The notes under the pieces are model-generated. The model was given only the letters and a program-made list of their open reading frames with translations. It was not told where the DNA came from and did no database searches. Below, piece after piece: positions 18,334-44,509 of a stretch of DNA of 64,000 nt. The position numbers were made by a program, and so were the translations under genes. Each line of letters opens with the position of its first letter. The stretch's first letter is position 1. Source of the stretch: Candidatus Bathyarchaeota archaeon (GTDB lineage: Archaea > Thermoproteota > Bathyarchaeia > Bathyarchaeales > Bathycorpusculaceae); the NCBI GenBank assembly GCA_963832745.1, contig CAWHVC010000003.1:791451-855450 (forward strand), in the 5' to 3' direction.

Positions 18334-18906
18334 ACGGTAAGATGTGAAGTTTGCGGGCGTAAAATTCACAATGACCCAATTCGGGCAAATATTGAAGGCG
18401 CAAAATTAACCGTCTGTGCTGAATGTGCCAAACATGGCAAAATCATTTATCCAGAAGAGGAAAATCGTGCACCTAAATCACCCTTCCTAACCATTGCATC
18501 AGGTTCCACTTCAGCCTCAGTAGCAAAACCCAAGAGGCAACCTCAAATGATGCAGAGAAAACGCAACCTTGTCGCAAAGGTAGAATTCACTCAAGAATTA
18601 ATCGAAGACTACGCCACCCTAATCCGCGTTACAAGAGAAAAACTTGGTTACACCCATGAGGACCTTGGCTTAAAAATCAGCGAAAGAGCATCAGTACTAA
18701 AACATATTGAACTAGGCAAAATGGAGCCAAATAACCTTCTTGCCAGCAAGCTTGAACGCGCACTAAAAATCAAGCTGCTGGTCCCCATAGAAGAAGAAAA
18801 ACCGACCCCGATTGCTTCAACTAAAAATCAAGAGATGACTTTGGGTGATCTTATCGAAATTGACAGTAACGACACGGAGGAACCCAAAGAACGAAAGCAA
18901 TCATAG
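18334..18906 (+). CDS. mbf1: archaeal multiprotein bridging factor aMBF1 (Zn ribbon + HTH), proposed ACG start
   Basis: Zn ribbon RCEVCG...VCAECAKHG lies upstream of the track Met; in-frame TGA at 18325, AGGTGA then ACG at 18334; HTH and TLGD tail. Confidence 0.9.
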   Translation, partial: TVRCEVCGRKIHNDPIRANIEGAKLTVCAECAKHGKIIYPEEENRAPKSPFLTIASGSTSASVAKPKRQPQMMQRKRNLVAKVEFTQELIEDYATLIRVTREKLGYTHEDLGLKISERASVLKHIELGKMEPNNLLASKLERALKIKLLVPIEEEKPTPIASTKNQEMTLGDLIEIDSNDTEEPKERKQS

Positions 18907-20162
18907 CTCAAAGACGCCTAAACCGTGAAGAATCAAGCCTTGAAGAATTAAAGGCACTTGCAGAGTCAGCAGGATACACAGTTGTTGGCACCCTAGAGCA
19001 AACAAGACCGCCTGATTCACGATACCAAATAGGTGCAGGAAAAGTTGAAGAACTCGCCAACATGGTAAAAGAAACAGGCGCAACCAAAATCATTTTTGAC
19101 AACACTTTACGTACAATACAAAACTATAATTTAGCTAAAGCCACAAGAGTCGAAGTCATCGACCGTTTTCAACTTATCCTTGAAATCTTTACACACCGCG
19201 CAACAACCACAGAGGCTCAACTGCAAATCCAGTTGGCAACTCTTAAAAACGAGCTTAAACATGCCCGAGAAAAAGTGCGCTTATCCAAAGGCACCGAACA
19301 ACCAGGTTTTATGGGTTTAGGCGCTTACGAAGCAGACGTTTACCGAGACGCCATCAAACTGCAAGTACAAACCAACTTGAAAAAATTGGCGGCAATCCGA
19401 ACAAAACGCGTTTTGCAACGTGAAAGAAGAATAGAACTCGGTTTCATTTCAATTTCACTTGCAGGCTACACAAGCGCAGGTAAAAGCACCTTATTTAATG
19501 CTTTAACGGAGGAGACCGCAAGAGTTGAAAAATCCCTATTCACTACTTTATCGACCCAAACGCGTATTGTAGAGTTTTCTAACCGCAAATTCCTCTTAAC
19601 CGACACCGTCGGCTTCATTGACCGCTTGCCAATTTCACTTATTGAAGCTTTCCATTCAACATTGGAAGAAACCATTTACTCTGACTTAATCGTCATAGTC
19701 CTTGACCTTAAAGAGCCGTTGGAGTTAATTGAAAAGAAAATCCGCGTCTGCCATGACACAATCAACCGTTTAGGAGCAGGCGGCATCCCACAAATTACAG
19801 CCTTAAACAAGGTTGACAGGCTAAGCCCTGAAGAGACACAACAAAAACTTGAAGCCTTAAAAGAAAAAATCCTCAACCCAATACTAATTTCAGCAAAAAA
19901 ACGTACAAACCTAGATGAGTTAAAACGGCAGATTGTACGTATGCTGGAAAATTATGTGCAAGGAAGCTTTGCTGTTCCATTGAAGGGCGAGTCAATGCCG
20001 TTTATTTCGTGGGTTCATGAAAAAGCTGAAGTTAAAAAAGAAGAATTCTTAGGCGACCGTGTACAGGTTGAATTTGAAGCTAACCCACAAGTTGCTGAAC
20101 AAATAAGAAGAAAAGTGGAAAAACTCAATGGAAAATTCACCCAACCAGTTAATGGCCAATAA
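18891..20162 (+). CDS. hflX: GTPase HflX, proposed ACG start
   Basis: GYTSAGKST, FTTL, DTVGFI, NKVD; conserved EELKALAESAGY...YQIGAGKVEE lies upstream of track Met 19062; in-frame TAA at 18867. Confidence 0.92.
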   Translation, partial: TKAIIAQRRLNREESSLEELKALAESAGYTVVGTLEQTRPPDSRYQIGAGKVEELANMVKETGATKIIFDNTLRTIQNYNLAKATRVEVIDRFQLILEIFTHRATTTEAQLQIQLATLKNELKHAREKVRLSKGTEQPGFMGLGAYEADVYRDAIKLQVQTNLKKLAAIRTKRVLQRERRIELGFISISLAGYTSAGKSTLFNALTEETARVEKSLFTTLSTQTRIVEFSNRKFLLTDTVGFIDRLPISLIEAFHSTLEETIYSDLIVIVLDLKEPLELIEKKIRVCHDTINRLGAGGIPQITALNKVDRLSPEETQQKLEALKEKILNPILISAKKRTNLDELKRQIVRMLENYVQGSFAVPLKGESMPFISWVHEKAEVKKEEFLGDRVQVEFEANPQVAEQIRRKVEKLNGKFTQPVNGQ

Positions 20163-20715
20163 ACCAAAAATTGTCGTGCTAAGATGGGGACACCGTATCC
20201 ACCGCGACAGCCGTCTAACCACGCACTGCGCGTTAACAGCCCGTGCCCTGTGCGCTTCAGGCTTCATACTCGCCGACATTGAAGACAAATCCATCGAAAA
20301 AACCGTCAAAGGCATCACACAGCATTGGGGAGGAGACTTCACCTTCGAAATGGGAACCAGCTGGCGCAGCGTCGTCAGAGATTGGAAAGCACAAGGCGGC
20401 ATAGTAGTACATTTAACTGCTTACGGCGAAAACTTGCAAACAAGCAACGCCATAAATCGCATACGCGAAACGGGAAAAAACATTCTGCTTTTGGTAGGTA
20501 GCCAAAAAGTCCCCGGCGAATTCTACAGCACAGAAGTTTCTGACTTTAACATTGGCGTTGGCAATCAACCGCACAGTGAATGCAGCGCTTTGGCAATTTT
20601 TTTGGACCGCTTCTTTGAAGGCAAAGAATTAACGGTAGATTTTGAAAAAGCTAAAATGAAAATTGTTCCTCAAGAGCATGGCAAAAACGTCTCGTCGATG
20701 GAAGAAAAATCGTGA
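20152..20715 (+). CDS. trm56: tRNA (cytidine(56)-2'-O)-methyltransferase
   Basis: VLRWGHRIHRDSRLTTHCALTARA, VHLTAYG, VGSQKVP, NQPHSE. Confidence 0.95.
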   Translation: MANKPKIVVLRWGHRIHRDSRLTTHCALTARALCASGFILADIEDKSIEKTVKGITQHWGGDFTFEMGTSWRSVVRDWKAQGGIVVHLTAYGENLQTSNAINRIRETGKNILLLVGSQKVPGEFYSTEVSDFNIGVGNQPHSECSALAIFLDRFFEGKELTVDFEKAKMKIVPQEHGKNVSSMEEKS

Positions 20716-20775
20716 ATCTTGTGCGAATAGTTTTATGTATGAATGTGCCATAATTATAGGTATTAACAAGGAAAA

Positions 20776-21294
20776 TTGAGTATGTTGTCAACTATTGATG
20801 ATGCAACTTTAATGAAGGTGGCTTCTGCGTTGGGTGAGGAAGAAGCCGTCAGACTTATTGAGCATTTAAAAGGCGTAGACGAAATAACGGATGATGAAAT
20901 AGCCAACAAAACCGGTATCCGCCTAAACAGTGTCCGCAAAATCCTCTACAAACTCTATGACCACTCCTTGGTTAGCTTACGCAGAACACGCGACCCCAAA
21001 ACAGGCTGGTTCATCTTCCACTGGAAACTTCAGCCAGACCAACTGGAAGGCTTCATCTTAAGCCAAAAACGCAGAGTACTTGAAAAACTCAACGTACGCC
21101 TTGAATACGAGAAAAATCATGACTTTTACTTCTGCAACAGTGTAGGATGTAAACGGGTACCTTTTGAAGAAGCCGTAGAACTTGTATTCCACTGCAGCAC
21201 ATGCGGTCAACCCTTAGTGCATTTTGGAAACGAGCAAATGATCTGCAAGCTTTCAGAAAAAGTGGAGATTCTAAGGAAGGAACTCGGTGAATAA
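20776..21294 (+). CDS. tfe: transcription factor E
   Basis: TDDEIANKTG...VRKILYKLY, RDPKTGWFIFHW, CNSVGC...CSTCG Zn ribbon. Confidence 0.95.
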   Translation: MSMLSTIDDATLMKVASALGEEEAVRLIEHLKGVDEITDDEIANKTGIRLNSVRKILYKLYDHSLVSLRRTRDPKTGWFIFHWKLQPDQLEGFILSQKRRVLEKLNVRLEYEKNHDFYFCNSVGCKRVPFEEAVELVFHCSTCGQPLVHFGNEQMICKLSEKVEILRKELGE

Positions 21295-21814
21295 GCCGCT
21301 TCCCACAAGGGAGCAAGCCATCGAGATTCTGCAAAGAAACGGATGTCACCCCAAAGTAATTGCGCACTGTCAGGCAGTAGCTTCGTTGGCTCTTGAATTG
21401 GCAGAGAGGTTCAAAGCAAAAAATTTTACTGTAGATTTAAGGCTAGTTGAAGCTGGTGCACTTTTGCATGATCTTGGACGCTCCAAAACCCACAGCGTTA
21501 ACCACGCAGTTGAAGGCATGAAACTAGCTCAAGCAGAAGGTTTACCAGAAGAAGTAATATGCATCATCAAACGGCATGTTGGCGCCGGTATCACAGCGGA
21601 AGAAGCAGAATGGCTCGGCTGGCCCAAAGACAATTACATTCCAGAGTCACTGGAAGAAAAAATTGTCTGTTACGCAGACAAATGCATCGGCAGCGACGAA
21701 CGCATCCCAGTGGAAGCAACAATTAAGCAGTTGCATGACCAGAAGCTTTATGACGCTGCCGAAAGAGTTAGAAAACTCCATATAGAAATAACCAGTTATC
21801 TTGAGGCACAATAA
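21287..21814 (+). CDS. HDIG/TIGR00295 family HD-domain protein
   Basis: VIAHC, ALLHDLGRSKTH, IKRHVGAG, EEKIVCYADK. Confidence 0.9.
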   Translation: MNKPLPTREQAIEILQRNGCHPKVIAHCQAVASLALELAERFKAKNFTVDLRLVEAGALLHDLGRSKTHSVNHAVEGMKLAQAEGLPEEVICIIKRHVGAGITAEEAEWLGWPKDNYIPESLEEKIVCYADKCIGSDERIPVEATIKQLHDQKLYDAAERVRKLHIEITSYLEAQ

Positions 21815-21815
21815 T

Positions 21816-22577
21816 TTGACCATTTTAACCTTATTTACCAAAGTGCATAATCAGGGGCAAATAAAACAGATTCAAGTTTCCCTGCAGGCGGCTTTTGAAG
21901 ATTTAGACGTGCAAGTCCAAGTTTTAGGCGCCCCAGTTAATCGGTGGGTAAAAGTTGAAGTCACCGGCGAAGACGAAGGCGTAGCCAAAAGCTACATAAC
22001 CAAACAAATAGGAGTTTGCCCAAACAGCATCAACGACGTCACGGAAGGCTCAGAGCTTAAAGGTTACATTCAAAAAATGGATACTCCCGAAACGTTAACA
22101 GTTGATGTTGGCATTTTGGAACCAAAAATAATCAATGCCACCATTCCGCTATCTACCCTGCAGACACAATTGCTTGCTGGCAGAGAAGTACCGTTGAAAA
22201 AAATTGCGGAACTTTTCGCGCTTAACGCTGATTTGCCGGTAAGTATCAAAATCAAGGAGTTGCATGTTGCAGAGGGCAAGATTGATGCGGAGTTATCGGC
22301 GGTTCAGGTTGAGAAGTTTAAGAATTGGCAGGATTCTTTTTTGGACCGGCTCATAATTTTAGGTACAACAAGTGAGGATGTCACTGTGACGCTTGAGCGT
22401 ACAAGGTTAAATCGTGACGTTATCGACACTGAGGCGTTAGGGTTGTTTGAGCATGTGCTTACTTGTAAGTTGGGTACGGATGCTGCTGGGCTTATCTCCA
22501 AGATTGGTCGTTATATGCGTAATGCCCGGTTTGTGGTGTTTAATCCTAAGAGGATTGCGGGTTTTTTGGATGAATAA
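21816..22577 (+). CDS. DUF2110 family protein
   Basis: VEVTGEDE, VDVGI, ALGLFEHVLTCKLGTDAAGLI; usual tfe-HD neighbourhood; TTG after GAGG. Confidence 0.8.
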   Translation: MTILTLFTKVHNQGQIKQIQVSLQAAFEDLDVQVQVLGAPVNRWVKVEVTGEDEGVAKSYITKQIGVCPNSINDVTEGSELKGYIQKMDTPETLTVDVGILEPKIINATIPLSTLQTQLLAGREVPLKKIAELFALNADLPVSIKIKELHVAEGKIDAELSAVQVEKFKNWQDSFLDRLIILGTTSEDVTVTLERTRLNRDVIDTEALGLFEHVLTCKLGTDAAGLISKIGRYMRNARFVVFNPKRIAGFLDE

Positions 22578-22659
22578 GCATTAACCTTATATTTGGTAAT
22601 AGATAGTTAAACATTTTATTACCAAAAATTTGGTCATAGAAGAGAGGGGGAAAATAGTT

Positions 22660-22827
22660 ACGAGCCAAAATCAACCCGAAGAGGGCAGAGGAAAAAAATA
22701 CCGTATAGACATTGGAGCATACGGCAGCATAGGAATTGAAGCTCCAACCAAAGAAGAATGCCTAGAACTTTTTAAAGAAGTAACAAGAACACGCCGCGAT
22801 TCAAGAATCGACGAAGCAATCAGATAA
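22660..22827 (+). CDS. small hypothetical protein (ACG at 22660 or TTG at 22630)
   Basis: GAGGGGG 9 nt before ACG AGC CAA; YRIDIGAYGSIGIEAPTKEECLELF; T-run downstream. Confidence 0.6.
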   Translation, partial: TSQNQPEEGRGKKYRIDIGAYGSIGIEAPTKEECLELFKEVTRTRRDSRIDEAIR

Positions 22828-22885
22828 GCAATTTTTACGGCACCTTCCATTTTTCAAAAAAAAAGAAAAGAGAAATTTTTTGGTT

Positions 22886-23317
22886 CTAACTTTTGATAGG
22901 TACCCTGCGGTACAAAACAACGCCTACAACACTACCTAACCCGGTACCCAAGACCGCCATAATACCCAAAACAACCCAAATTTCATCATCACCTGATTCT
23001 ACTTGTGCAGAGACAAGGTTTGTTTCACCTGCACCGGGAACTAAAGTGTCACCTGCTTCGATTGTAGAGTTTTGGTTTTGAGCAGTGTAGGGGATTGCGT
23101 CTCCGGAAGATACCGCTGAATCGGGGCCGGCTGATTCGGGGAGGGGTTCGGGTTGGGATACATCGCGTGGGGAATTAGGCGAGTTACCGGTCACTGATTT
23201 AGAGGGAGGTACGGAGGCGGTGGCGGTTCCTGTATCGGCGTTAGCGATGGAGGCAAAAACGGTGCACACCAGCAGGGTTGCCAGCATTGAGAGCACTATT
23301 AGGTTTTTTGTTTTCAT
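22886..23317 (-). CDS. secreted low-complexity protein with C-terminal TM anchor
   Basis: GGAG-preceded ATG, signal peptide, S/P/T-rich linker, TM then YRR. Confidence 0.7.
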   Translation of the reverse strand: MKTKNLIVLSMLATLLVCTVFASIANADTGTATASVPPSKSVTGNSPNSPRDVSQPEPLPESAGPDSAVSSGDAIPYTAQNQNSTIEAGDTLVPGAGETNLVSAQVESGDDEIWVVLGIMAVLGTGLGSVVGVVLYRRVPIKS

Positions 23318-23517
23318 AGTTTTTCTCCAAATTTTTGCAATCATAGAGTTAGAAGGCTGGGTTATTTACAGCCAAGCCTTAGAACCAACCGTCCAAAAAA
23401 TAGAACCATAAAAGTCAGCAAACGAAACTGCCCAAATCAAGTTGTTTAAAGACAAATGCCTTGTTACCGAAAAGTTAAAACAATTATTGCTTCAAAGAGA
23501 CTTTTTGGGAGACAATA

Positions 23518-25206
23518 TTGAAGGACAAGGTTGTAACTTTATTGTTAGTTACTCTTTTAGCTTGCTTGCTATATCCAAGTTTTTCAAACAATCTGAAAAC
23601 AGTGACGGGTGATACTTCAAGTGTCAACACTGATTCCTGGCCTATGTTCCAAAAAGATTTGGCGCATTCAGGATACTCCACAACTTGGGGTCCCCAAACA
23701 AACAATGTTCTATGGACCACTTCGGTGGGTGAAATTGAATCTTCCCCTGCTATAGTTAACGGCGTTGTCTATGTTGGCTCTTATTCAGGGTTTGTTTATG
23801 CGTTAAATGCGTCTTCGGGAGCAATAATTTGGAGTTACGCAGCGAATGAGAATACAGAGTCATCTCCAACGGTTGTAGATAACGTCGTTTACATAGGAGC
23901 AGGAAATTATTCTGCAACTCGAGACAACGGGCACGTTTATGCCTTACAAGCGACTACAGGAGAAAAGCTGTGGAGTTACCAAACAGGCGGTACAGTTGAG
24001 TCTTCTCCTGCAGTAGCGTACGGCAAGGTTTACGTAGGATGCGGTGACGGGAACGTTTACGCTTTTGATGCTGCTACGGGCAACGTTATTTGGAGCTATA
24101 AAACAGATGCAACTATTTTGAAGTCTTCACCCGCTGTAGTCGAAGGAGTAGTTTACATATGCTCAATTGAATATCTTTATGCTTTAAACGCAACCAACGG
24201 CATGAAGCTCTGGAGTCAAACCGGTGACTGGAGAATTCTTTCATCATCCCCTATGGTTACAAATAACATTGTTTACCTAAGCGCTGACGGCGTTTATGCT
24301 TTTGACTCAAAAACCGGTGAATTACTATGGCATCAAATATCTGACAGATATCCAAATTCCTCAGAATCCACTCCTGCTTTAGCCGATGGTGTTATTTATG
24401 TTGGAACCACAGAGGGTAATGTTTTGGCTTTAAACGCTTCGGATGGCTCGAAACTTTGGGCTTTTCCCACAGAGAGCACTGTTGCTGCTTCACCTGCAGT
24501 TGTCCGGGGAGTAGTTTATGTTATTTCATGCAATGGCACCTTTTACGCGTTGAACGCCTATAACGGAACTAACCTATGGAGTTATTCAATAAGTGATATA
24601 CAGTCAGGGGTTTTATCATCTGTTGCAGTAGTCGACGGCATAGCTTACGTAGGCTCAAATAGCGGACTGTACGCTTTTGGTGATTTATCCTACACTCCAC
24701 CTGAGCAATCCACTAATTCAACTTGGACCTTACCAGTCACAACACAAAACGGTACAACAATAAATCTCACAATGAGCGGAAACATAACAATTGAGCAAAT
24801 GTCCAACGTTACAATATCTATGGACATACCCTCTTTAACAGCAAACATCTCTTTCGCGTTAACAGGCGAAAACGGCACCACAGGGTTTAGTAACATAACA
24901 TTACCGAGAAATGAAATTCCAGGGGGAACAACACCCCTTGTCTACATAGACAACTCGCCAGCCGATAATCAAGGATTCACTCAAGACAATAACAACTATT
25001 ACGTATGGTACACAACCCACTTTAGCACACATCAAATATCCATATTATTTGCTTCACCAACTTCTCCGACGGGGGATAATCAATCTACAACGCAACCAAG
25101 CTGGGTTCAAATTATCTATGGAGTAGCAGTTGGAGTAGCCATTGCAGCAGTTATCATTATCGCACTTGCACTATTAATGAGGGACAAAACTAAAGTCCAG
25201 AAGTAA
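23518..25206 (+). CDS. PQQ-like beta-propeller repeat surface protein
   Basis: WPMFQKDLAHSG, ~8 SSPAV..GVVYVG..VYALNA..G...WSY repeats, C-terminal TM. Confidence 0.9.
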   Translation: MKDKVVTLLLVTLLACLLYPSFSNNLKTVTGDTSSVNTDSWPMFQKDLAHSGYSTTWGPQTNNVLWTTSVGEIESSPAIVNGVVYVGSYSGFVYALNASSGAIIWSYAANENTESSPTVVDNVVYIGAGNYSATRDNGHVYALQATTGEKLWSYQTGGTVESSPAVAYGKVYVGCGDGNVYAFDAATGNVIWSYKTDATILKSSPAVVEGVVYICSIEYLYALNATNGMKLWSQTGDWRILSSSPMVTNNIVYLSADGVYAFDSKTGELLWHQISDRYPNSSESTPALADGVIYVGTTEGNVLALNASDGSKLWAFPTESTVAASPAVVRGVVYVISCNGTFYALNAYNGTNLWSYSISDIQSGVLSSVAVVDGIAYVGSNSGLYAFGDLSYTPPEQSTNSTWTLPVTTQNGTTINLTMSGNITIEQMSNVTISMDIPSLTANISFALTGENGTTGFSNITLPRNEIPGGTTPLVYIDNSPADNQGFTQDNNNYYVWYTTHFSTHQISILFASPTSPTGDNQSTTQPSWVQIIYGVAVGVAIAAVIIIALALLMRDKTKVQK

Positions 25207-25244
25207 GGTTGTATTTTTCCAAGCTTTAATCGCTACTAAGAGTT

Positions 25245-25322
25245 TGGTGGGCCGAGCCGGATTCGGACCGGCGACCTTTGGCTCGTAAAGCCAACGTCCT
25301 AACCAGGCTAGACGATCGGCCC
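25245..25322 (-). tRNA. tRNA-Val(TAC), CCA encoded, atypical T-loop
   Basis: GGGCCGA/TCGGCCC acceptor, TTGGC-TTTACGA-GCCAA anticodon arm, GCCGG-TCCGAAT-CCGGC T arm, ACCA end. Confidence 0.93.
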
Positions 25323-25480
25323 ACATTTACCTGTTGCCGTTTGATTAAGACAACGTTTTTGTTTTTAAGGTTGTCTGTAGGATTGTTTGGATACAGATAT
25401 AAATTCGTATTTGTATAGGTCAAACAAAACCTGCACGAACCACAAGCGTCAGGTAAATTGATGGTTAAAGGTGAATCTGG

Positions 25481-26558
25481 TTGGCGAAACGAATTCTTTG
25501 TACTGGTGCCGGCGGTCCAGCAGGCATAAACTTTGTAAAATCCCTAACAGTAGCCCCCGAAAAACTTCATATCGTAGGAACAGAAGCCAGTGAATATTAT
25601 CTACACACAATGCCTGCTGACACCAAATATTTAGTGCCAAGAGCAAAAGACCCCAGCTACATAGACCGCTTAAACGAGATAATTCGTAAAGAAAAAATCG
25701 ATTTTCTGCACGCCCAACCAGATGTTGAAGTCGAAGTGGTTTCTGAGCAAAGAGAAAAACTGGAAGCCCCCGTGTTCTTGCCATCAAAACAAGCCGTGGC
25801 AGCCTGCCAAGACAAACTCGCTTCTGCTAACGCTTGGAAAAACAAGGGCATACCAGTTGCCAAAACCATCGTTATTAAACAGGAAGCTGATATTGATCGT
25901 GCGTTTGCAGAGTTTGGTTCACCAATCTGGATACGTGCTACACGTGGCGCAGGCGGAAGGGGAAGCACACCCGCAAGCAACCGTGAAACAGCCGTTTCCT
26001 GGATAAACTATTGGCGAGCCCGCAATGTTGACTGGGAATTTATCGCCCAAGAAATGCTGCCAGGCCGAAACATCGCTTTCCACAGTTTATGGCAAAACGG
26101 GGAACTCGTCACTTCCATGGCACGTGAACGCCTCGAGTACATTTACTCTTATCTGGCACCGTCAGGCATCATGGGAACACCAGCCGTGCAAAAAACGGTG
26201 CATGAGAACACAGTTAACAAAATCAGCACCGAAGCCGTCCTCGCCATTGACCCCAACTTTACCGGCATTGCAAGCGTAGACCTAAAAGAGAACGCTAAAG
26301 GCGTGCCTTGTGTAACCGAAATCAACCCAGGACGCATGTTCACCACCTCGTTCTTCTTCAGTTACGCCAGCAAAGTCCTTCTTCAACGATTACCGCATCA
26401 ACATCCCCTACCTCTACACCAAACTCGCCTACAAAGAAGCCTTGCCAAAACTGGAAAAATACAATCCGCTCCCCGCCGACGTTTACTGGATACGTCACAT
26501 GGACGCTCCAGCCCGCCTCGTAAAGGACAATAAAGTGTTGGGAGCAATGTATCAGTAA
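25481..26558 (+). CDS. ATP-grasp carboxylate-amine ligase (1-bp frameshift near 26380)
   Basis: TGAGGPAG, CQDK, GAGGRGS, QEMLPG, VTEINPGR; shifted frame NIPYLYTKL...YWIRHMD ends at TAA 26556-26558 abutting next ATG. Confidence 0.8.
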
Positions 26559-27053
26559 ATGATTCGAGCCGTCGTTTTTGATTTAGACGGAACCCTTCTG
26601 GATTTACCCATCGATTACCCTCGTATGTTTGAGGAGTTCAAGCAGTTAATGGGTGTTGATGAGGTTCGGCCTATTTTGAAAACGGTGGCACAAATCAAAG
26701 ACCCCAAAGTGTTACAGCAGGTTTTTGATTGCTGGACTGGTTTTGAAGCGGAAATAATCGACAAAACCACCGTGCATGAGGAAGGCATGCAGCTTTACCG
26801 CCAACACGCCAGCTTGCTAAAAGCGCTGGTGACGATGCAAGGAAAAGAAACCCTCCGCAAAATCTGTCAAAAGTTTGACCTGCAGTTTGATGCTGTTTTT
26901 ACTCGTGAGGATTCTTTTAGTCGAGCAGAACAGCTGAAGATGGCAATTGCAAAGCTTGGCTTCAACCCGACAGACGTGTTGTTTGTCGGCAACATGGACA
27001 ACGACGAGGCTGCAGCTAAACAAGTAGGTTGCCAATTCACCCGCGTAAAATAA
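26559..27053 (+). CDS. HAD family hydrolase
   Basis: FDLDGTL motif I, LFVGNMDND motif IV. Confidence 0.88.
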   Translation: MIRAVVFDLDGTLLDLPIDYPRMFEEFKQLMGVDEVRPILKTVAQIKDPKVLQQVFDCWTGFEAEIIDKTTVHEEGMQLYRQHASLLKALVTMQGKETLRKICQKFDLQFDAVFTREDSFSRAEQLKMAIAKLGFNPTDVLFVGNMDNDEAAAKQVGCQFTRVK

Positions 27054-27057
27054 TAGG

Positions 27058-27455
27058 CTATTGGGGAATAACAGCGGTTGCGTCGATTTCAAGCAGCCAT
27101 TCAGGATTACCTAAACCAGCTACAAAGACCACTGTTATAGCTGGAAGATTCTGGCTTGCCCATTTCTGTTGAAAAACCATAAAACCTTCAGCAGGGTTTT
27201 GTCCTACAAGAATGTAAATGTTGAATTTGACTACGTTTTCAAGTTTGCCGCCGGCCTTTTGCAGGATTTTTTCAATGTTGGATAAAACCTGTTCTGTTTG
27301 TTCTCGTAGGTTACCTTTGCCGATCAGTTCGCCAGTCTGGTTTATGGCGTTTTGTCCGCCTATGTAAACGGTTTTGTGGTTGCCGCTGACGCTAATGGCG
27401 TGTGAGTATCCTTTGGTGCCGCCATGGTTTCAGGGTTAATGGGTTCTATTGGCAT
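27058..27455 (-). pseudogene. RidA family protein with two 1-bp frameshifts (possibly sequencing errors)
   Basis: Joined frames: MPIEPINPETMAAP/GYSHAISVSG..TVYIGGQ..EQTEQVLSNIEKIL../LPAITVVFVAGLGNPEWLLEIDATA. Confidence 0.8.
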
Positions 27456-27550
27456 TTTGGAGCCTCTTGACTGTTTTCAAAACACGGACTATTAACTTTT
27501 GGGAAGACGCAAAAATAAGCTTAATCATTGAATAACGCGCTTCAACGATT

Positions 27551-28270: not shown

Positions 28271-28287
28271 TAACAAAGGCACCTTTC

Positions 28288-35639: not shown

Positions 35640-35769
35640 CCCTTGTTTTAGTATAAGCTCGTAGTTATTTCATTTTCTATTTAACTGTTTATTAGCCTCA
35701 AAATTGGGTTTTCGTTAAACACATTATTTATTATCAAAGACAACGTTCACTTATGGCAATTGAGATACC

Positions 35770-37248: not shown

Positions 37249-37252
37249 AAAA

Positions 37253-37522
37253 TTAAAGAAGCAGAACGGCAAGAAGGTCATTTAGGTCTTTCTTGGTTTT
37301 TATGCCTCTGAAAATGATTTTGCCGCTGGCGTAGAAACGAAAAGAATATTGTTGGAAAACCAAGTCGTAAATCATTCCGGCAACTTGGCTTTTCAAAGTG
37401 GCTTTTTTCAATATATTTTGTAGTGCTTGGTCTTTTTTGTCAAATTTTAGGACGACTATGACGTCGCTTTCAGCGCCGCAAGTGCCTTCGATTCTTGAGA
37501 CATAGTCGCCTACCGTTGACAT
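37253..37522 (-). CDS. small hypothetical protein, last gene of Fe-S operon
   Basis: TAATG coupling to sufS; RIEGTCG, FRFYASGKIIF. Confidence 0.7.
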   Translation of the reverse strand: MSTVGDYVSRIEGTCGAESDVIVVLKFDKKDQALQNILKKATLKSQVAGMIYDLVFQQYSFRFYASGKIIFRGIKTKKDLNDLLAVLLL

Positions 37523-38754
37523 TAAAGCGCCTGGAACTCCTTTAGCACTTCAAGGAAACGGTTTACCTCTTCCTTAGTATTATAGAGATAGAAGCTAGCG
37601 CGGGCGCTGGATTGCAACTGGAAGATTTGGTGCAGTGGTTGTGCACAGTGATATCCGCTACGTATGGCTATTCCGTAGCTGTCGCATAAGAGGGCAACAT
37701 CATGTGATGATAAGCCTACAACGCTGAAAGGTATTATCCCACATTTGCTTGAAAGCTCTGTTGGACCGTGAACGGTTATTTTGCTCATGTCTTTCATGCC
37801 TTTCATTGCCTGTTTTGTGAGGGCTTTTTCGTGAGCTAAAATATTTTCCATTTCAACTTGTTGAAGGTATTTTATGGCTGCTGCTAACCCGATTGCACCC
37901 GATATGTTCGGTGTGCCTGCTTCAAACTTCCAAGGGGATTCATTCCAGCTTATGTCGCATTGCTGACTTTGGAAATTGTAAGCTACGTCTTTTATCATTT
38001 CTCCGCCGCCTTGGAATGGCCCCATCTTTTCAAGCAACGTTTTCTTGCCATATAAGACGCCGATTCCTGTTGGAGCAAGCATTTTGTGTCCCGAGAAAGC
38101 CAAAAAGTCAGCGTCAAGATCTTGAACGTCAACTTTCATGTGCGGAACGGATTGAGCGCCGTCTACAAGCATTAAAGCGCCGTTATCATGTGCAATTTTT
38201 GATAAGCGTTTTATGTCGTTTACTACGCCTGTAACGTTTGAAACTTGGCTTATGCAGGTGATTTTTGTTTTCGGTGTAATTTTGCTTTCAAAATCTTTGA
38301 TGTCTAAAACACCCTCGGATGTGACGTTTGCATAGTTTATTTTGAAGCCACGGATTTTAGCGGTAATTTCCCATGGAACAATGTTGCTGTGATGCTCCAT
38401 TAGGGAAACGAGGACTTCGTCACCCTTTTTGAGGTTGTTTAGTCCCCAAGAGTAAGCGGCAAGGTTAATTGCTTCAGTTGTTCCTCTAACAAAAACTATT
38501 TCGGAAGACTCTTTTGCGTTTATGAATTTTGCAACTTGTTCACGGCTTTTCTCATACATTTCAGTAGCTTCTAAAGAGAGCGTGTGTACTCCTCGGTGAA
38601 CGTTAGCGTTATTGTTTTCGTAATAGTCGGTTATGGCTTGTATGACTTGTCGGGGTTTTTGTGTTGTTGCGGCGTTGTCAAAGTAGATGAGGGGGTTATT
38701 GTTTACTTTACGTTTTAGAATTGGAAAATCGTCGCGAATCCGAGTTAGATCTAT
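37522..38754 (-). CDS. sufS: SufS-type cysteine desulfurase, proposed ATA start
   Basis: Upstream in-frame DLTRIRDDFPIL...YFDNAATTQKP...NANVHRGVH; MEHHSN, DGAQS, FSGHK, RSGYHCA. Confidence 0.92.
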   Translation of the reverse strand: MDLTRIRDDFPILKRKVNNNPLIYFDNAATTQKPRQVIQAITDYYENNNANVHRGVHTLSLEATEMYEKSREQVAKFINAKESSEIVFVRGTTEAINLAAYSWGLNNLKKGDEVLVSLMEHHSNIVPWEITAKIRGFKINYANVTSEGVLDIKDFESKITPKTKITCISQVSNVTGVVNDIKRLSKIAHDNGALMLVDGAQSVPHMKVDVQDLDADFLAFSGHKMLAPTGIGVLYGKKTLLEKMGPFQGGGEMIKDVAYNFQSQQCDISWNESPWKFEAGTPNISGAIGLAAAIKYLQQVEMENILAHEKALTKQAMKGMKDMSKITVHGPTELSSKCGIIPFSVVGLSSHDVALLCDSYGIAIRSGYHCAQPLHQIFQLQSSARASFYLYNTKEEVNRFLEVLKEFQAL

Positions 38755-39266
38755 TGGGATTTTTCTTCCTCCGGCTTTAGCCTCTTAGACAGCGTCTTGG
38801 CTAATTCTTCCTCTTCTAAGGCTTGCTTTTCTTCAAAAGTGTTTTCCTTAGGCATCCATGCTGGTTCAGCGCCTTTTTTGGCATCAAAATATTTTCTGAT
38901 TGCACGTTTCAACGCGCCGACGGCGAGAACTCCGCAGTGGAATTTAACGCTTGGCAAGCCGCCGATTGCGTCGGTAACTTTTTTCCAAGTAATGTCATTC
39001 CAAGCAACTTCAAGAGTTAAACCTTTAACCATTTCAGTAACTATGCTTGAGGTTGCAATGTTAGCGGCACAACCGTAGCTTTCGAATTGTGCTTTTTCAA
39101 TAATTTGAGTTTCCTCGTTAATTTTTAGGTAAAAAGTTATCATGTCTCCGCATGCAGGGTTGCCAGCGACTGCTACGACTGTGGCGTCATCCATTTTTCC
39201 AAGGTTTTTGGGGTTGCGGAATAAATCCATAACTTTCGGGTTATAAGGTAAAGGTATACGCGACGT
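38751..39266 (-). CDS. iscU: IscU/NifU Fe-S scaffold, proposed ACG start
   Basis: NPACGD, YGCAA, KFHC; in-frame extension (ACG)SRIPLPYNPKVMDLFRNPKN follows the iscS stop. Confidence 0.92.
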   Translation of the reverse strand, partial: TSRIPLPYNPKVMDLFRNPKNLGKMDDATVVAVAGNPACGDMITFYLKINEETQIIEKAQFESYGCAANIATSSIVTEMVKGLTLEVAWNDITWKKVTDAIGGLPSVKFHCGVLAVGALKRAIRKYFDAKKGAEPAWMPKENTFEEKQALEEEELAKTLSKRLKPEEEKSQ

Positions 39267-39269
39267 TTT

Positions 39270-40493
39270 TTACTCCACTCCTGTTGAACCAACTATCCGT
39301 CTAATACGATTAACAGCTGATGGTAATACTTCCAAAACGTAAGCTATATCTTCTTCTGTAAGATAACGCGTCGTCTTCATAAGCACGCTACCGTGAGCTT
39401 CTTCAAATCTGCGTCCAATAGCTACCAACACGTGACTGGGCTGGAGCAGTCTTCGGCTGCACGCACTTCCGCTTGAAATGTAGACACCTTTGAGGCTCAA
39501 CTCGATTGTTAGAGCCTCACCTTCTGCACGTAGGAAACTGATGTTTGCATTGTCGGGGGAACGCTTTTCGCCTTTTGGACCGTTAAACCGTAAATCAGGC
39601 AGTTCAGTGAATATGCCATCAACCAGTTTGTCTCTTAAAGTGCGCATTTTTGTAGTGTTTGCCTCAAAATCTTCAAAAGCCAACTCGGAGGCTTTAATGA
39701 AGCCAACAATTAAGGGCGTGTTTTCTACGCCTGGCCAAAGTTTTTGTGTACCGATTTGTCCTTCGATTATGCGGTCAAGGTTTATGCCTTCTTTTAGATA
39801 CATGGCACCCATTCCTCGGGGACCCTGGATTTTGTAGCTGCTTACTGTTGCCAAGTCAACGTTTAAGTCTTGTACATTGAAGGGTACTCTACCGTAGGCG
39901 TCGGTTGCGTCTGTATGGAAAAGCGTGTGAGGGTTTTTATCTTTGACAATTTTAACTGCCTCTTTGATGTCTTGAACTGTGCCTAATTCATTGTTTACTG
40001 TTGCGACGCTTACAAGGATGGTTTCTTTGTCGATTGCTTCTTTGAGTTTTTCCATGTTCAAGAAGCCTTCATGGTCAACAGGGATTTTGGTTATGGTGAA
40101 ACCGAATTTTTGCATCATCTCCGCAACTTGCATAACATTTACTGGTTCAATTTCTGAGATGACAATTTTTTTGCCTTTATCTTTCTGGGCAAAACATGAC
40201 CCCATTACTGCAAGGTTGTTTGCTTCGGTTTCGCCTGGGGTGAAGGTGATTTCTTCAAGGATTTTGGCGCCCATGGTTTTGCTGATTTTTTGGAAGCAGT
40301 TCATGATTACTTCGAAGGCTTCCCAGCCTGGTTTGTGGGTGAGAGTTGGGTTGCCGTAAGCGGTCTTGTTAAAGTACGGAAGCATTGCGTCTACGACTTC
40401 TTGGGGAACGATGCTTGAGTTTTCGTTGTCTAAGTAGACCTCGTGTGTGATGCCTTCGTGAAGTTTAAGAAGTTCTTTTACGTTTTCAACCAT
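39270..40493 (-). CDS. iscS: IscS/NifS-like protein with degenerate active-site motifs
   Basis: YGNP, NNELGTVQ, SSYKIQGPRG, SSGSACS, PSHVL; EH changed to EP and IRFS to VLMK. Confidence 0.85.
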   Translation of the reverse strand: MVENVKELLKLHEGITHEVYLDNENSSIVPQEVVDAMLPYFNKTAYGNPTLTHKPGWEAFEVIMNCFQKISKTMGAKILEEITFTPGETEANNLAVMGSCFAQKDKGKKIVISEIEPVNVMQVAEMMQKFGFTITKIPVDHEGFLNMEKLKEAIDKETILVSVATVNNELGTVQDIKEAVKIVKDKNPHTLFHTDATDAYGRVPFNVQDLNVDLATVSSYKIQGPRGMGAMYLKEGINLDRIIEGQIGTQKLWPGVENTPLIVGFIKASELAFEDFEANTTKMRTLRDKLVDGIFTELPDLRFNGPKGEKRSPDNANISFLRAEGEALTIELSLKGVYISSGSACSRRLLQPSHVLVAIGRRFEEAHGSVLMKTTRYLTEEDIAYVLEVLPSAVNRIRRIVGSTGVE

Positions 40494-40609
40494 AAAGTAT
40501 CCTTACCATAGAAAGTGATTAGATAACTCGTCACCTTGCTATATCCCTGTTCAAGTAAAAAAACCTAACCGCTGTAGTGTTTCGAGGTTTTGTCTTGGTT
40601 GTGTGTAAT

Positions 40610-40731
40610 TTTTGTTTAGACGTTGTTGCTTAAAAATTGCTATAAACAATAACCAACATGTTTTTGAAAAGTTTCCTTTTTGGTGCCCGGTTGTTTTGAT
40701 GGCTGCAGGCTGGTTGTGGATTATACCACAA
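40610..40731. repeat. dispersed intergenic repeat family B, copy 3 (degenerate)
   Basis: TTTTGTTTAGACGTTGTTGC...AACCAACA...CTGCAGGCTGGTTGTG...CCACAA collinear with copy 2. Confidence 0.6.
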
Positions 40732-40761
40732 GCTCCATTTCAGGCTACTTACCTATACGGC

Positions 40762-41907
40762 TTATTTGTAAGCATTTTTTACAGGGGGTTCTATATTTCT
40801 CTTTTTTACATGACTCGCTACCAAAAACACTACTGAGGTAAATATGATTAAAGTAAGAGCCACAATTAATAGCCATTGATAAGACAAATCTGAACCCGAT
40901 GAAGTTGGAGTACTGGTCAGTACTGAATTGTTGTTGGCATCTATCACTGAAATCGTGCCATCAAGTAGGTTAGAGACATATGCATATTGCCCATCTGGTG
41001 TGAAAGCTACGCTGTAAGGGGTGGTTCCAACCGAGATAGTCGTATTCACTTCTTTGGTGGCTGTGTTTATCACTGAGACAGAGTTGTTTATGCCATTTGT
41101 AACGTAGATGTATTCGTTGTTTGGTGTTAATGCTATGCTATTAGGGTTGGTTACACCAGTCACTGTCGCTGTCACTGTATTAGTTGCTGTGTTTATGATC
41201 GAAACTGAGTTGCTTGCAAGATTCGTAACATAAACGTAGGTGCCATCCGAAGTTATAGCTAAGCCGTCAGGGTTCATTCCAACTGTTACTGTCGCTGTTA
41301 CTTCATTCGTTTTTGTATTTATCACCGAAACGCTGCTGCTTCCACCATTAGCAACATAAACATATTCGCCGTCGGGAGCTATAGCCAAAGCGTTAGGACT
41401 GCTTTCTACAGTTATCGTCTTCACTACTTCATTGATAGCTATGTTTATCACCCAAACCATGCCCACACCGTTAGTGCCAATGATGGTGCTTCCTGAAACG
41501 TAGGCAAATTCGCCATTAGGTGAAATAGCGACATTTCCGGGGCTTCCGTCCAAAGTTATTGTGGTAGTCACTTTGTTTGAAGGGACGTTAATGACTGCGA
41601 TTGAATTCGACTCTTGGTATGAGCATGTTACGTAAGCAGATTTGCTGTCAGGCGTTATAGCTATTCCGTTAGAGCCTTTAACGTCTATTATTGCTATCAC
41701 TATATTGGTAGCTAAGTCTATTGCTGAGACATTGTTTCCATTTGGAACATATGCGTATTTACCATCAGGAGTTATAGCTACAGCCCAAGGCATACCACCA
41801 ACTTGTATTATGCCCGTACTTGCAGCTCTCGTTGACAATGGCAAGGACACAAAAGCACAAAAAAAGATAATGCAAATTGCTAAAGTAGTTGCTATGTTAC
41901 GCTTCAT
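40762..41907 (-). CDS. YVTN/YncE beta-propeller membrane-anchored protein
   Basis: Seven AITPDG.YAYV.N...VSVINT repeats, signal peptide, C-terminal TM. Confidence 0.9.
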   Translation of the reverse strand: MKRNIATTLAICIIFFCAFVSLPLSTRAASTGIIQVGGMPWAVAITPDGKYAYVPNGNNVSAIDLATNIVIAIIDVKGSNGIAITPDSKSAYVTCSYQESNSIAVINVPSNKVTTTITLDGSPGNVAISPNGEFAYVSGSTIIGTNGVGMVWVINIAINEVVKTITVESSPNALAIAPDGEYVYVANGGSSSVSVINTKTNEVTATVTVGMNPDGLAITSDGTYVYVTNLASNSVSIINTATNTVTATVTGVTNPNSIALTPNNEYIYVTNGINNSVSVINTATKEVNTTISVGTTPYSVAFTPDGQYAYVSNLLDGTISVIDANNNSVLTSTPTSSGSDLSYQWLLIVALTLIIFTSVVFLVASHVKKRNIEPPVKNAYK

Positions 41908-41915
41908 ATTATCAC

Positions 41916-42602
41916 CTATTTTGAGGTATCCTGAATTTTTCCATCAGTTAACCAAAGTATTCGTTCTGCAGATTCGCCAACTATTTGATCATGCGTGACC
42001 ATGATAGTAGTGGTTTTATGGTTTGAGTTCAGATTTGCAAGCAGTTTTACAATCTCATGCTTGTTTTGAGAATCTAAGTTGCCTGTGGGTTCATCTGCTA
42101 AAATGATGGCAGGGTTGTTTGCTAATGCTCTAGCAATGGCTACTCTTTGTTGTTCACCTTGGCTAAGACGATTTGGTCTGTGTTCCTCTCTGCCTTGCAG
42201 GCCTACTGTCGCAAGTAAGTCTTTGGCTCTTTGCTTTCGTTGCCCTTTGAATTTGCCTGCAAGTTCCATGGCTAACTCAACATTTTCTCGGGCATTCAAA
42301 TACGGGAGAAGATTGAAACTTTGAAATACAAAACCAATTTTATCTCGTCTAATCTTATATAGTTGAGATTCTGGCAGGTTTGCGATGTCAATGTCATCTA
42401 TTAGGATTTTGCCACTCGTCGGTTTATCAATGCAGCCCACGATGTTTAGCAATGTAGTTTTACCAGAACCGGAAGGACCCATGATTGCGACTAACTCACC
42501 TCTTTTAATTTCGAGATTAAGATTGCACAAGCAGTGAACATCTCGTTTGCCCAGCATGTAGGTTTTTGAGAGGTCGTCGATTTTAAGCACTAAATCATTC
42601 AT
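41916..42602 (-). CDS. ABC transporter ATP-binding protein (LolD/MacB type)
   Basis: GPSGSGKT, LSQGEQQRVAIARAL, LADEPTGNLD. Confidence 0.95.
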   Translation of the reverse strand: MNDLVLKIDDLSKTYMLGKRDVHCLCNLNLEIKRGELVAIMGPSGSGKTTLLNIVGCIDKPTSGKILIDDIDIANLPESQLYKIRRDKIGFVFQSFNLLPYLNARENVELAMELAGKFKGQRKQRAKDLLATVGLQGREEHRPNRLSQGEQQRVAIARALANNPAIILADEPTGNLDSQNKHEIVKLLANLNSNHKTTTIMVTHDQIVGESAERILWLTDGKIQDTSK

Positions 42603-43890
42603 ATCGCATTGCCTCCGCTGGTCTTATTCTTGCGGCTCTCCAAGCAGGGTATAAACTGCCAATTGCACCTAACAATACTGAAACGCCTAATCCAAATAGC
42701 ACAAGCTCAGGGGTTATGGTGACAGTGATGGAAGTTGTTGTTAGAGATGTAGCTATGTTGCCGTCTGACATTATTAACCCGTTTCCAGTTTGAGTTGGCG
42801 CTGGTAGAAGCATGTTGGCCAATGATGTTGCGCCGAATATGCCAATCGATATACCAACTACACCTGCAATCAAGCTGAGCAAAATGCCCTCAATCATAAA
42901 CTGCCCCAAGATGGTTTTGTTACTTGCACCCATCGCTTTGAGTGTGCCAATTTCTTTGGTTCGCTCACGAACGGTATAGAGCATTATGAACAGAACAATT
43001 GCGCCATCTGCTACTGTTATTATGCCCATTTCTATTAGGCCAGTGCTTTGTATTTGGTTCATTGTGTTTTGGGCTTGTTGAAGTTGCTCGTTGGTTTGAG
43101 TTTGCATCTGGAAAACTTGATTGATTAGCGTCTGAGCTATGGTTGTTGTTAATTTCGGGTATGCACCGATTATTTGCTGGTTGACAGTGTAAACGTTGTT
43201 AACGCTATCTGCAAACACCTTGAATGTCGAGGCTTGACCTGTAGTGTTAGTGATTGCCTGGGCGTCAACTATATTCATTGTAGCGTATGTTGAATTGAGC
43301 GCTTCTTGGCCTTCGATGCCAACTACCTCAAAGTTTCGACCGAAAATGCTTATGGTTCCACCTACTCCAATATTGAAGTGGTTTGCGATGCGTTCTGATA
43401 GAACAACGACTCCACTGTCACCTGCCTGCAAATTGCGTCCATCCGTAATGTTAGCTGGCAGAATTATCGGGTAATTGTTAAGTAAGTCAACGGAGCCTAA
43501 GGGCATGCCATTGATTTGGTATTCCCAACCGTCTCCCTGTTGGAGTATTGCTGGTATGACACGTGCAACATTGGGAATTGATGTAATATTGCCGTAATCA
43601 GTGTAATTCATAAGTGGCTGTTCCATGATGGTCTTGTTGTTTTCGTCGATACGAAATGTCAACGGAAGTTTGCAGTCTATTTCGGTTGCTGCCATATTCA
43701 CTGTTGAACTAACGATTTTGGCGTTAGCTGTGAGTTGGTCTATGGTTTTTTGAGTGGCTTCTTGGCTGGCTGTTATGCTTGGTGGAATAGATACTATCAT
43801 TGCCAGTGCAAGGCTCAATGTTACTATCACTAGCAGAGCTCTCATTTTTCTTCTTGAGATGTTTCGGGTTGCTCTTGTCAATGTTCCCAT
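42595..43890 (-). CDS. ABC transporter permease (MacB/FtsX type)
   Basis: AGGAG-preceded ATG at 43890; VRERTKEIGTLKAMGA, YPAWRAARIRPAEAMRYE. Confidence 0.92.
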   Translation of the reverse strand: MGTLTRATRNISRRKMRALLVIVTLSLALAMIVSIPPSITASQEATQKTIDQLTANAKIVSSTVNMAATEIDCKLPLTFRIDENNKTIMEQPLMNYTDYGNITSIPNVARVIPAILQQGDGWEYQINGMPLGSVDLLNNYPIILPANITDGRNLQAGDSGVVVLSERIANHFNIGVGGTISIFGRNFEVVGIEGQEALNSTYATMNIVDAQAITNTTGQASTFKVFADSVNNVYTVNQQIIGAYPKLTTTIAQTLINQVFQMQTQTNEQLQQAQNTMNQIQSTGLIEMGIITVADGAIVLFIMLYTVRERTKEIGTLKAMGASNKTILGQFMIEGILLSLIAGVVGISIGIFGATSLANMLLPAPTQTGNGLIMSDGNIATSLTTTSITVTITPELVLFGLGVSVLLGAIGSLYPAWRAARIRPAEAMRYE

Positions 43891-43911
43891 TTTTCTGACT
43901 CCTAATTCATG

Positions 43912-44037
43912 CCTACCACTATCAATAGTAGGATTTATAAGACTTACCATAAACGATGGTAGGATTGACGAGAAAGCGAAATCAGCAACAACCCAAATTT
44001 GGAAAACCTTAATTAGCCTACCAACCCCCATGGTACA
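43912..44037. promoter_or_regulatory. three palindromic operators CCTACCAT-N5-ATGGTAGG (probable BlaI sites) flanking divergent TATA boxes
   Basis: CCTACCAC-tatca-ATAGTAGG 43912-43932; CTTACCAT-aaacg-ATGGTAGG 43943-43963; CCTACCAA-ccccc-ATGGTACA 44017-44037. Confidence 0.8.
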
Positions 44038-44050
44038 TGAGGAAACTTAA

Positions 44051-44509
44051 ACGTCAACCGAGAAAAAAAACGCTGTTTCCCAATACAACATTGAAGGAAA
44101 GCAACTAGAAGCATTCTTGGGTCCGCTAGAGGCAAGCATTCTCGAAACGATTTGGTGCTCAGCGAAAAGACCAATTACTGTACGAGAAGTCTTAGAAATT
44201 ATAAAAAAGAAAAAACCTGTCGCTTACACAACAATCATGAATACAATGGACCGCCTTTTCGAAAAAGGACTGCTTGACCGCAGAATTGAAAAAGTCAAAG
44301 GCGGCACCTATCTCTATTATGTATATTGGCCAAAGCTTGAGGAACAGAGCTTTAAAGAAGCTGCAGTGCGTCAAGTGTTAAACAGCCTGTTAGATAACTT
44401 TGATGAACTCGTTACAACTTGCCTTATCGAAAAAGCCGCCACAGATGATAAACAATTGGAGGCACTCAAGGAAAAAATTGACAGAACACTTAAAGAAAAG
44501 AAGAAATGA
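44051..44509 (+). CDS. BlaI/MecI/CopY family repressor, proposed ACG start
   Basis: LGPLEASILETIW, AYTTIMNTMDRLFEKGLLDR; in-frame TAA-ACG at 44048-44053 after GAGG. Confidence 0.9.
   Translation, partial: TSTEKKNAVSQYNIEGKQLEAFLGPLEASILETIWCSAKRPITVREVLEIIKKKKPVAYTTIMNTMDRLFEKGLLDRRIEKVKGGTYLYYVYWPKLEEQSFKEAAVRQVLNSLLDNFDELVTTCLIEKAATDDKQLEALKEKIDRTLKEKKK

Follow-up and report, generated by a model that had tools for sequence, protein, structure and literature searches.

Comparative evidence for ACG start codons in hflX and a few other genes of Bathyarchaeia

Genes and start regions in the window

The stretch analysed here (the window: 64,000 nucleotides (nt) of a Candidatus Bathyarchaeota genome, assembly GCA_963832745.1, contig CAWHVC010000003.1, positions 791,451 to 855,450) contains five genes with an in-frame ACG, a threonine codon, at or next to the position where translation is expected to begin. 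These are mbf1 and hflX, which overlap, an iscU/NifU-like scaffold gene, a gene for a BlaI/CopY-family repressor and a small open reading frame (ORF), whose features are given in Table 1. The five ACG sites, with their motifs and stops, had been listed in the initial annotation, and their coordinates were found correct on re-reading the sequence. The genome of the window has 3.02 Mb in 5 contigs and 41-42% G+C. The 3' end of its 16S rRNA (GGATCACCTCCT) is complementary to motifs of the GGTGA/GGAGG type, and GGAGG and GGTGA are therefore the expected ribosome-binding motifs. All five ACG sites have GGAGG, GGTGA, GAGG or GGAG 6-10 nt upstream.

The ACG follows an in-frame stop by 1-8 codons in mbf1, hflX, iscU and the BlaI-like gene, and the translations agree with the earlier observation that no ATG, GTG or TTG (hereafter canonical starts) occurs from this stop to the ACG. 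The first downstream canonical codons in the mechanical list of ORFs are at 18547 (mbf1), 19062 (hflX), 39230 (iscU) and 44117 (BlaI-like). As had also been described, the flanks of the ACG sites differ and share no common motif. ACG is the rarest threonine codon of the genome, with 3,416 of 30,800 threonine codons (11%) in long ORFs.

Table 1. Start regions and coding regions of the five genes, in window coordinates
Feature	Position	Strand	Remarks
Shine-Dalgarno-like GGTGA (mbf1)	18323..18327	+	GGTG(A) or similar purine motif here in most of 30 loci
ACG, candidate replacement start of mbf1	18334..18336	+	6 nt after GGTGA; in-frame TGA at 18325
GTA at ancestral mbf1 start position	18337..18339	+	aligned codon canonical in most relatives
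mbf1 (aMBF1) coding region as read from ACG	18334..18906	+	TIGR00270, Pfam HTH_3
Shine-Dalgarno GGAGG of hflX	18876..18880	+	within mbf1 3' end; invariant in 14-sequence alignment
hflX start ACG, as identified by comparison	18891..18893	+	10-nt spacer after GGAGG; in-frame TAA at 18867
hflX coding region, 423 amino acids from ACG	18891..20162	+	overlaps mbf1 end by 16 nt
GAGGGGG (22644-22650), 9-nt spacer and ACG 22660 of small ORF	22644..22662	+	55-amino-acid protein, coding sequence to 22827; G014 orthologue
iscU/NifU-like scaffold gene read from ACG	38751..39266	-	Pfam NifU_N, NCBIfam
GGAG (39276-39273), TAA (39272-39270), AAA and ACG (39266-39264) of iscU	39264..39276	-	TAA is the stop of the upstream cysteine-desulfurase-like gene
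GAGGAA (GAGG from 44039), TAA 44048 and ACG 44051 of BlaI/CopY-like repressor	44039..44053	+	ACG in five genomes
BlaI/CopY-family repressor gene read from ACG	44051..44509	+	Pfam Penicillinase_R residues 23-144

Start codon of hflX

The mbf1-hflX locus was taken from 30 genomes of the genus and order (labels L001-L030) and from a named Bathyarchaeia set of 80 species-level records, 79 of them readable, L132 being cut at the locus edge. For hflX, 20 further genomes of the phylum were included, 17 of them outside the order. Opposite 18891, 29 of the 30 loci of the order have ACG and the remaining one (L004) has ATT, and 76 of the 79 named records also have ACG, with ATT in L085 and ATG in L154 at the same codon; L147 has ACG too, one base off by extrapolation, and is additional to the 76. 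Two further genera of the family also have ACG in hflX. Outside the order, ATG, TTG or GTG was found at the aligned codon or at most 4 codons away in 16 of the 17 genomes, and ACG at the aligned codon in none.

GGAGG precedes the start by 9-10 nt in nearly all loci, with GGAGA, GGGAG or similar motifs in a few distant records. A canonical start is absent from the upstream stop to the ACG position in all 30 loci of the order, three of which have the stop immediately before this position. When 14 loci are aligned over 117 columns, no block other than GGAGG and AACGA is invariant. Although ACG is the rarest threonine codon, its third base at this start is constant, and the adjoining codons vary freely. 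RNAalifold, applied to this start alignment (14 sequences), predicted zero base pairs.

The protein read from the ACG matches the model GTP_HflX (NCBIfam TIGR03156) with residues 8-351 against profile positions 10-350, and residue 14 of Sulfolobus HflX (PDB 2qtf) aligns with residue 18 counted from the ACG. Because of the conservation of the aligned codon, the lack of canonical alternatives and these profile and structure alignments, the codon at 18891 is identified by comparison as the start of hflX, and this start is ACG in most of Bathyarchaeia.

A different reading would have the proteins begin at the next downstream ATG, GTG or TTG, the conserved upstream part being an untranslated leader. 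Canonical codons are indeed present downstream; however, the first of them lies between +9 and +140 codons from the hflX start in the 30 loci, and its position shifts from genome to genome. The Pfam domain GTP-bdg_N begins at HflX residue 14 and ATG 19062 is residue 58, both counted from the ACG, so that a start at 19062 would halve this N-terminal domain, with 44 of its 88 matched positions lost. Further evidence on this reading comes from the BlaI-like gene, mbf1 and dnaG and is given with those genes.

The mbf1 stop lies 13 nt past the hflX ACG in 24 of the 30 loci, with a 16-nt overlap (18891-18906 in the window) and hflX in the -1 frame. An MBF1-HflX fusion made by programmed -1 ribosomal frameshifting in this overlap would leave hflX without need of a start codon, and it accords with the conserved overlap, with the -1 frame of hflX relative to mbf1 in all informative loci and with the purine-rich GGAGG about 10 nt upstream, the known stimulators of frameshifting including a purine-rich element at about this distance. 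However, a slippery heptamer is not conserved, as the overlap reads ACGAAAGC in most loci and ACGAGAGC, ACGAGGGC or ACGAAGGC elsewhere, and the mbf1 stop shares bases with the hflX start in L027 (TAACG) and L004 (TAATT). ATG or TTG also stands at the same codon in L154 and in genomes outside the order, and dnaG, the BlaI-like gene and others have ACG with no overlapping gene upstream. The fusion was rejected on the lack of a conserved slippery site and the presence of ATG, TTG or ATT at the same codon elsewhere, and is considered highly improbable. The adjacency of mbf1 and hflX has been described for Crenarchaeota in a passage of PMC3062615.

In three additional genomes without the ACG, hflX likewise has no clean canonical start. 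An order-level genome (G083, L321) has neither ACG nor a canonical codon and reads TAG ACT AGG ACT, with AGG as the sole near-cognate codon; G078 (L328), the remaining one of the 17 genomes outside the order, has only ATA, 8 nt after GGAGGG; and in G042 (L315) a CTG stands 5 nt past GGTGG, a motif that itself contains an in-frame GTG.

Start codons of iscU, the BlaI-like repressor and the small ORF

The iscU product matches Pfam NifU_N with residues 8-130 against profile positions 2-124, and the NCBIfam IscU/NifU models also begin at residue 8. The codon aligned with its ACG is canonical in all 28 orthologues compared (L032-L059), with ATG in 25 and GTG in 3. The ACG was found in this genome alone, and the closest relative has GTG; iscU is 95% identical to that of the sister species. 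The iscU ACG is located 3 nt past the stop of the upstream gene. Rows with internal stops in the mbf1 or iscU matches were not used as reading-frame evidence. Such stops occur in G003 in both genes (L026, L044) and in G004 (L047) and G019 (L048) in iscU, and they are probably assembly errors or pseudogenes.

For the BlaI-like gene, ACG is present in 5 orthologues from five species (L061-L065), all of them lacking an in-frame canonical start upstream, and the same aligned codon in 11 distinct paralogues or orthologues is ATG (9) or TTG (2). A start at the next canonical codon, TTG 44117, could be favored because this codon is position 1 of the Pfam model. However, the peptide SQYN(I/V)(E/D)GK.LE.FLGPLE, which lies upstream of it, is conserved, and the codon at the position of the TTG is CTA, TTA, CTC or CTG in other copies; 44117 is therefore not the start of the BlaI-like gene. 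BlaI/CopY-like genes form a multi-copy family, with six matches in G016, and immediately 5' of the ribosome-binding site of each copy stands a short inverted repeat (CTACTAT...ATAGTAG type; window 44010-44040; L066-L079), which looks like an operator for self-repression.

The start of the small ORF was compared with the whole single-contig genome of the congener G014, which was also used, by comparison of stop-to-stop ORFs, for the genome-wide analysis below. The syntenic G014 orthologue has ATG exactly opposite ACG 22660, after GGGAGAGGG, and ACG 22660 is the probable start of the 55-amino-acid protein. This gene had been listed as a weaker fifth case with an upstream TTG, which was confirmed to be in frame, at 22630.

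Orthologue alignment thus places ACG opposite canonical starts in iscU, the BlaI-like gene, the 22660 ORF and hflX (L154). The earlier proposal that ACG occupies the position of the first methionine stands for these four genes, in which it interchanges with ATG, GTG, TTG or ATT, but not for mbf1, where that position belongs to the next codon.

Start region of mbf1

The mbf1 product matches NCBIfam TIGR00270 (aMBF1) with residues 3-176 against profile positions 1-158, as well as Pfam HTH_3. The codon aligned with 18337 is ATG, GTG or TTG in 27 of the 30 loci of the order and in 78 of the 79 named records, and GTA at this codon is present only in this genome and its sister species (L002/L081). 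The preceding codon, at 18334, is ACG only in L001, L002 and L005 and ACA, ACT, TTC or others elsewhere; because ACG is found in three loci only, 18334 is not a conserved start. The first ten mbf1 codons have only synonymous differences from the sister species, and this pattern in the zinc-ribbon codons indicates that the region is still translated, which also argues against an untranslated leader. With GTA in the following codon, no near-cognate codon is better placed than ACG 18334, which is a candidate replacement start of mbf1. In G030 (L030) the canonical mbf1 start has been lost a second time, independently: the codon there is GTC, and the ATA before it stands 5 nt past GGGGTGA; this ATA-GTC arrangement parallels the ACG-GTA of the window.

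dnaG and other genes outside the window

Two genes, hflX and dnaG, keep ACG in both this genome and G014 without a canonical alternative. The dnaG gene matches NCBIfam DnaG (NF003108), and its ACG, 7 nt after GGTG, is present in 10 of 11 genomes of the genus, the eleventh having ATG. ACG is also found in dnaG of G040, with an in-frame TGA three codons upstream, and in seven other families the codon is ATG. The equivalog model for DnaG is matched from 9 residues past the ACG onward, and the next canonical start lies at +27 codons. This again speaks against downstream starts, a reading that was rejected because the upstream stretches are conserved as protein and that is regarded as very unlikely. 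No upstream gene overlaps dnaG in this genome, and translational coupling is therefore not required for the use of ACG.

Besides iscU, solid cases of ACG in this genome with a canonical start in G014 are the genes for a polyferredoxin, whose next canonical codon lies at +252 codons, for a PadR regulator and for three proteins that are small or membrane-bound. Other near-cognate codons were found as well. The codon at the start position of purF (amidophosphoribosyltransferase; contig C3 position 716564, minus strand) is ATA here and ACG at the same codon in G014 (near 359745). In both genomes it lies 6 nt after GAGGGA/GAAGGGA and is followed by GGC TGC, for glycine and the catalytic cysteine, with no canonical start for 92 codons in G014 and 131 codons here. 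In argG (contig C3 position 234034, minus strand) and an AMMECR1-family gene (contig C2 position 48919, minus strand), ATA follows GGGGGAG and AGGAGGT, respectively, where G014 has ATG (argG) and GTG (AMMECR1-family) at the aligned codon; the next canonical codons here are at +17 and +75 codons. ATT and ATC also occupy start positions of other genes in this genome. In the opposite direction, G014 has CTG in 4 genes, ATC in 1 and ATA in 1 at Shine-Dalgarno-led starts where this genome has ATG, GTG or TTG, so that near-cognate starts are not peculiar to this genome.

Genome-wide frequency of ACG starts

For the genome-wide control, Shine-Dalgarno-preceded codons located before the first canonical start were collected from ORFs of >=60 codons and aligned with the G014 codon. 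ACG is aligned to ATG, GTG or TTG in 8 of 92 cases, and the synonymous codons ACA, ACC and ACT in 0 of 156, 1 of 83 and 1 of 90, together 2 of 329 (Fisher p = 1.2e-4). Of the 8 ACG cases, one is better read as starting at the GTG that directly follows the ACG, and another is doubtful. GTA (11/106) and TTA (12/131) score high in the same control; as these codons are synonymous with GTG and TTG, their scores are not evidence of GTA or TTA starts. The excess of ACG at homologue-defined starts is more than chance. With a strict filter, near-cognate codons make up 10 of 15 non-canonical start cases.

This synonymous-codon control was the design relied on, over earlier screens. A first regular-expression screen gave ACG in 32 of 466 cases against a background of 3.6%, and it was confounded, since AAA scored as high as ACG. 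Reciprocal-best-hit screens were dominated by shadow ORFs and by alignments extending into leaders. Filters on coding score and overlap left 1,783 of 2,599 pairs, which still gave a noisy list, and iscU and the 22660 ORF escaped this pipeline.

From the sequences compared, ACG starts are estimated at about a dozen genes in 3 Mb (0.3-0.5%), five of them in the window. The general relaxation of start choice suggested in the initial annotation does not fit this rare and gene-specific use.

Initiation machinery and proposed mechanism

A search with Aragorn, introns allowed, found 47 tRNAs, only one of which is of the initiator type, with anticodon CAU, A1:U72 and GGG/CCC in the anticodon stem. The tRNA-Thr(CGU) begins with G1...C72 as the other threonine tRNAs. 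A dedicated initiator tRNA with anticodon CGU was ruled out, because the initiator-like tRNA has CAU and tRNA-Thr(CGU) is an ordinary elongator, and with it falls the earlier suggestion of a variant initiator tRNA. A single SUI1-family gene encodes aIF1, and its product aligns over the full length with Methanocaldococcus aIF1 (4mo0). Inspection of this alignment, which says little, gave no gross deviation and no feature readable as relaxed fidelity.

Here it is proposed as the likely explanation that the ordinary initiator tRNA initiates at ACG in a Shine-Dalgarno-dependent manner; given the ordinary set of tRNAs and a normal aIF1, initiation positioned by the Shine-Dalgarno motif with a middle-base mismatch would be the most economical mechanism. 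A motif of the GGAGG/GGTGA type 6-10 nt upstream would position the small ribosomal subunit, and the initiator Met-tRNA (CAU) would pair with ACG despite the mismatch, the first residue presumably being methionine. In hflX the weak ACG start would have gone to fixation throughout the order, and in dnaG throughout the genus as well as in certain other lineages. Elsewhere ACG may arise sporadically by ATG-to-ACG or GTG-to-ACG change, which here would account for iscU, the BlaI-like repressor, the 55-amino-acid protein, probably mbf1 and about six genes outside the window. Terminating ribosomes may also re-initiate at hflX, within the 16-nt overlap with mbf1, and at iscU, 3 nt past the upstream stop. 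In E. coli reporters, according to a passage of 10.1101/063800, ACG initiates at 0.1-1% of AUG and yields an N-terminal methionine. By analogy with infC, the long-kept start of hflX may reflect selection for low or regulated expression.

Several points weigh against ACG initiation. We infer the act of initiation by ribosomes from sequence comparison, and the counts given above are not counts of independent events, as the G-labelled genomes and the named records overlap and are mutually related. Other weak candidates lie near the ACG, namely ATC 18900 and ATA 18903 in hflX, ATA 39254 in iscU and GTA 18337 in mbf1, and the in-frame TTG 22630 is an alternative start for the 22660 ORF. In dnaG of G026, G037 and G031, an in-frame GTG and ATG are found inside the Shine-Dalgarno motif, 2-3 codons upstream, which makes these three loci ambiguous. 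The early screens were noisy, with 139 non-canonical codons, mostly not near-cognate, among 1,241 orthologue pairs whose partner start was usable. Moreover, iscU, the 22660 ORF and six genes outside the window are represented by one assembly, and a genomic ACG opposite the ATG of relatives is also how start-codon editing in plant organelles classically shows in comparisons.

The single assembly bears on the explanation that the ACGs which only this genome has (those of iscU, 22660 and the polyferredoxin, PadR and small genes) are consensus errors or recent mutations in decaying genes, the conserved cases being real. A search of public reads gave no RNA run and 10 DNA runs, each with <=0.10 of the sampled words of the window, and in contigs from four of these runs the long ones belong to relatives (about 88-92% alike, an estimate) and the short identical pieces miss 39266 and 44051. 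On the other hand, only ACG, and none of its three synonymous codons, is in excess, the flanks have no common motif and T-to-C changes placed precisely on start codons would be unexpected as an error pattern; the downstream coding regions are intact and conserved, as in iscU with its 95% identity to the sister species. This explanation is considered unlikely for the genome-unique cases. The ACGs of hflX, dnaG and the BlaI-like gene and the GTA of mbf1 are each present in at least two independent assemblies, and assembly error is excluded for these because several independent assemblies agree.

In the editing explanation, a cytidine deaminase would turn ACG into AUG in the transcript by C-to-U editing, as in plant organelles, and the CTG starts of G014 would in the same way become TTG. 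However, the start sites are not all convertible to AUG or UUG by this change, since C-to-U cannot yield AUG from the ATT of hflX (L004/L085) or the ATA of purF, argG and the AMMECR1-family gene. A search for DYW-type deaminases (PF14432) gave zero matches in this genome and is uninformative, because all 14 control genomes also gave zero matches. To our knowledge, no C-to-U editing of mRNA is known in archaea. Editing as the source of these starts is judged improbable, and quite improbable is the wider claim that Bathyarchaeia edit their mRNAs (ACG to AUG and CUG to UUG, in hflX, dnaG and others), which would be the first such editing, and the first starts made by it, in archaea.

Relation to known start-codon systems

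Near-cognate initiation by an ordinary initiator tRNA, as proposed for ACG, can be set beside several known systems. The bacterial infC gene for IF3 has an autoregulated AUU start conserved across bacteria. The hflX gene resembles it as a translation-related gene that widely keeps a weak, non-canonical start (ACG in 29/30 and 76/79) behind a good Shine-Dalgarno motif, with even ATT in L004/L085. The two differ in that the hflX codon is ACG, outside NCBI translation table 11, and the host is an archaeon with aIF1/aIF2 and not IF3. The weak start in a ribosome-associated GTPase recalls the infC AUU circuit, and the levels of HflX and DnaG are predicted to follow initiation fidelity (aIF1 activity, stress).

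In literature titles and abstracts, ACG start codons are usually reported from plant plastid and mitochondrial genomes. Editing of ACG to AUG in plant organelles shares with the present case a genomic ACG where relatives encode ATG; in Bathyarchaeia, in contrast, ATT and ATA also occur at the same start positions and would be irreparable by editing. In ACG initiation of eukaryotes and their viruses, for which VP2 of adeno-associated virus is an example, and in E. coli reporters, the initiator tRNA is likewise thought to read ACG with a middle-base mismatch, whereas the putative starts of Bathyarchaeia are native, chromosomal, Shine-Dalgarno-led and order-wide, and neither scanning-dependent nor artificial. 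A literature search, with subscription papers outside its scope, returned no native archaeal or bacterial ACG start and only cases from eukaryotes, their viruses and plant organelles. In the same direction, ACG is not among the annotated starts named for 34 well-annotated bacterial genomes in a main-text passage of 10.1101/063800.

Near-cognate initiation as such is already known; native ACG starts in archaea would be new, and the comparative support for them is unusually strong. If the proposal is true, a native ACG start is conserved across a whole archaeal order, and Shine-Dalgarno-led initiation in archaea tolerates a middle-base mismatch in vivo, in an uncultured and globally abundant lineage. 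The turnover among ATG, ACG, ATA and ATT at the same codon would also provide a natural series for the evolution of start-codon strength.

The alternative starts CTG, ATT, ATC and ATA of table 11 are similarly rare and gene-specific in bacteria, and this genome and G014 together show all four. Table 11 lists TTG, CTG, ATT, ATC, ATA, ATG and GTG as starts and does not include ACG. Gene callers limited to table 11, or to ATG, GTG and TTG, would therefore shorten these genes, in agreement with the truncation foreseen in the initial annotation, and hflX, dnaG and others in Bathyarchaeia are likely called about 10 to 140 codons short, or split.

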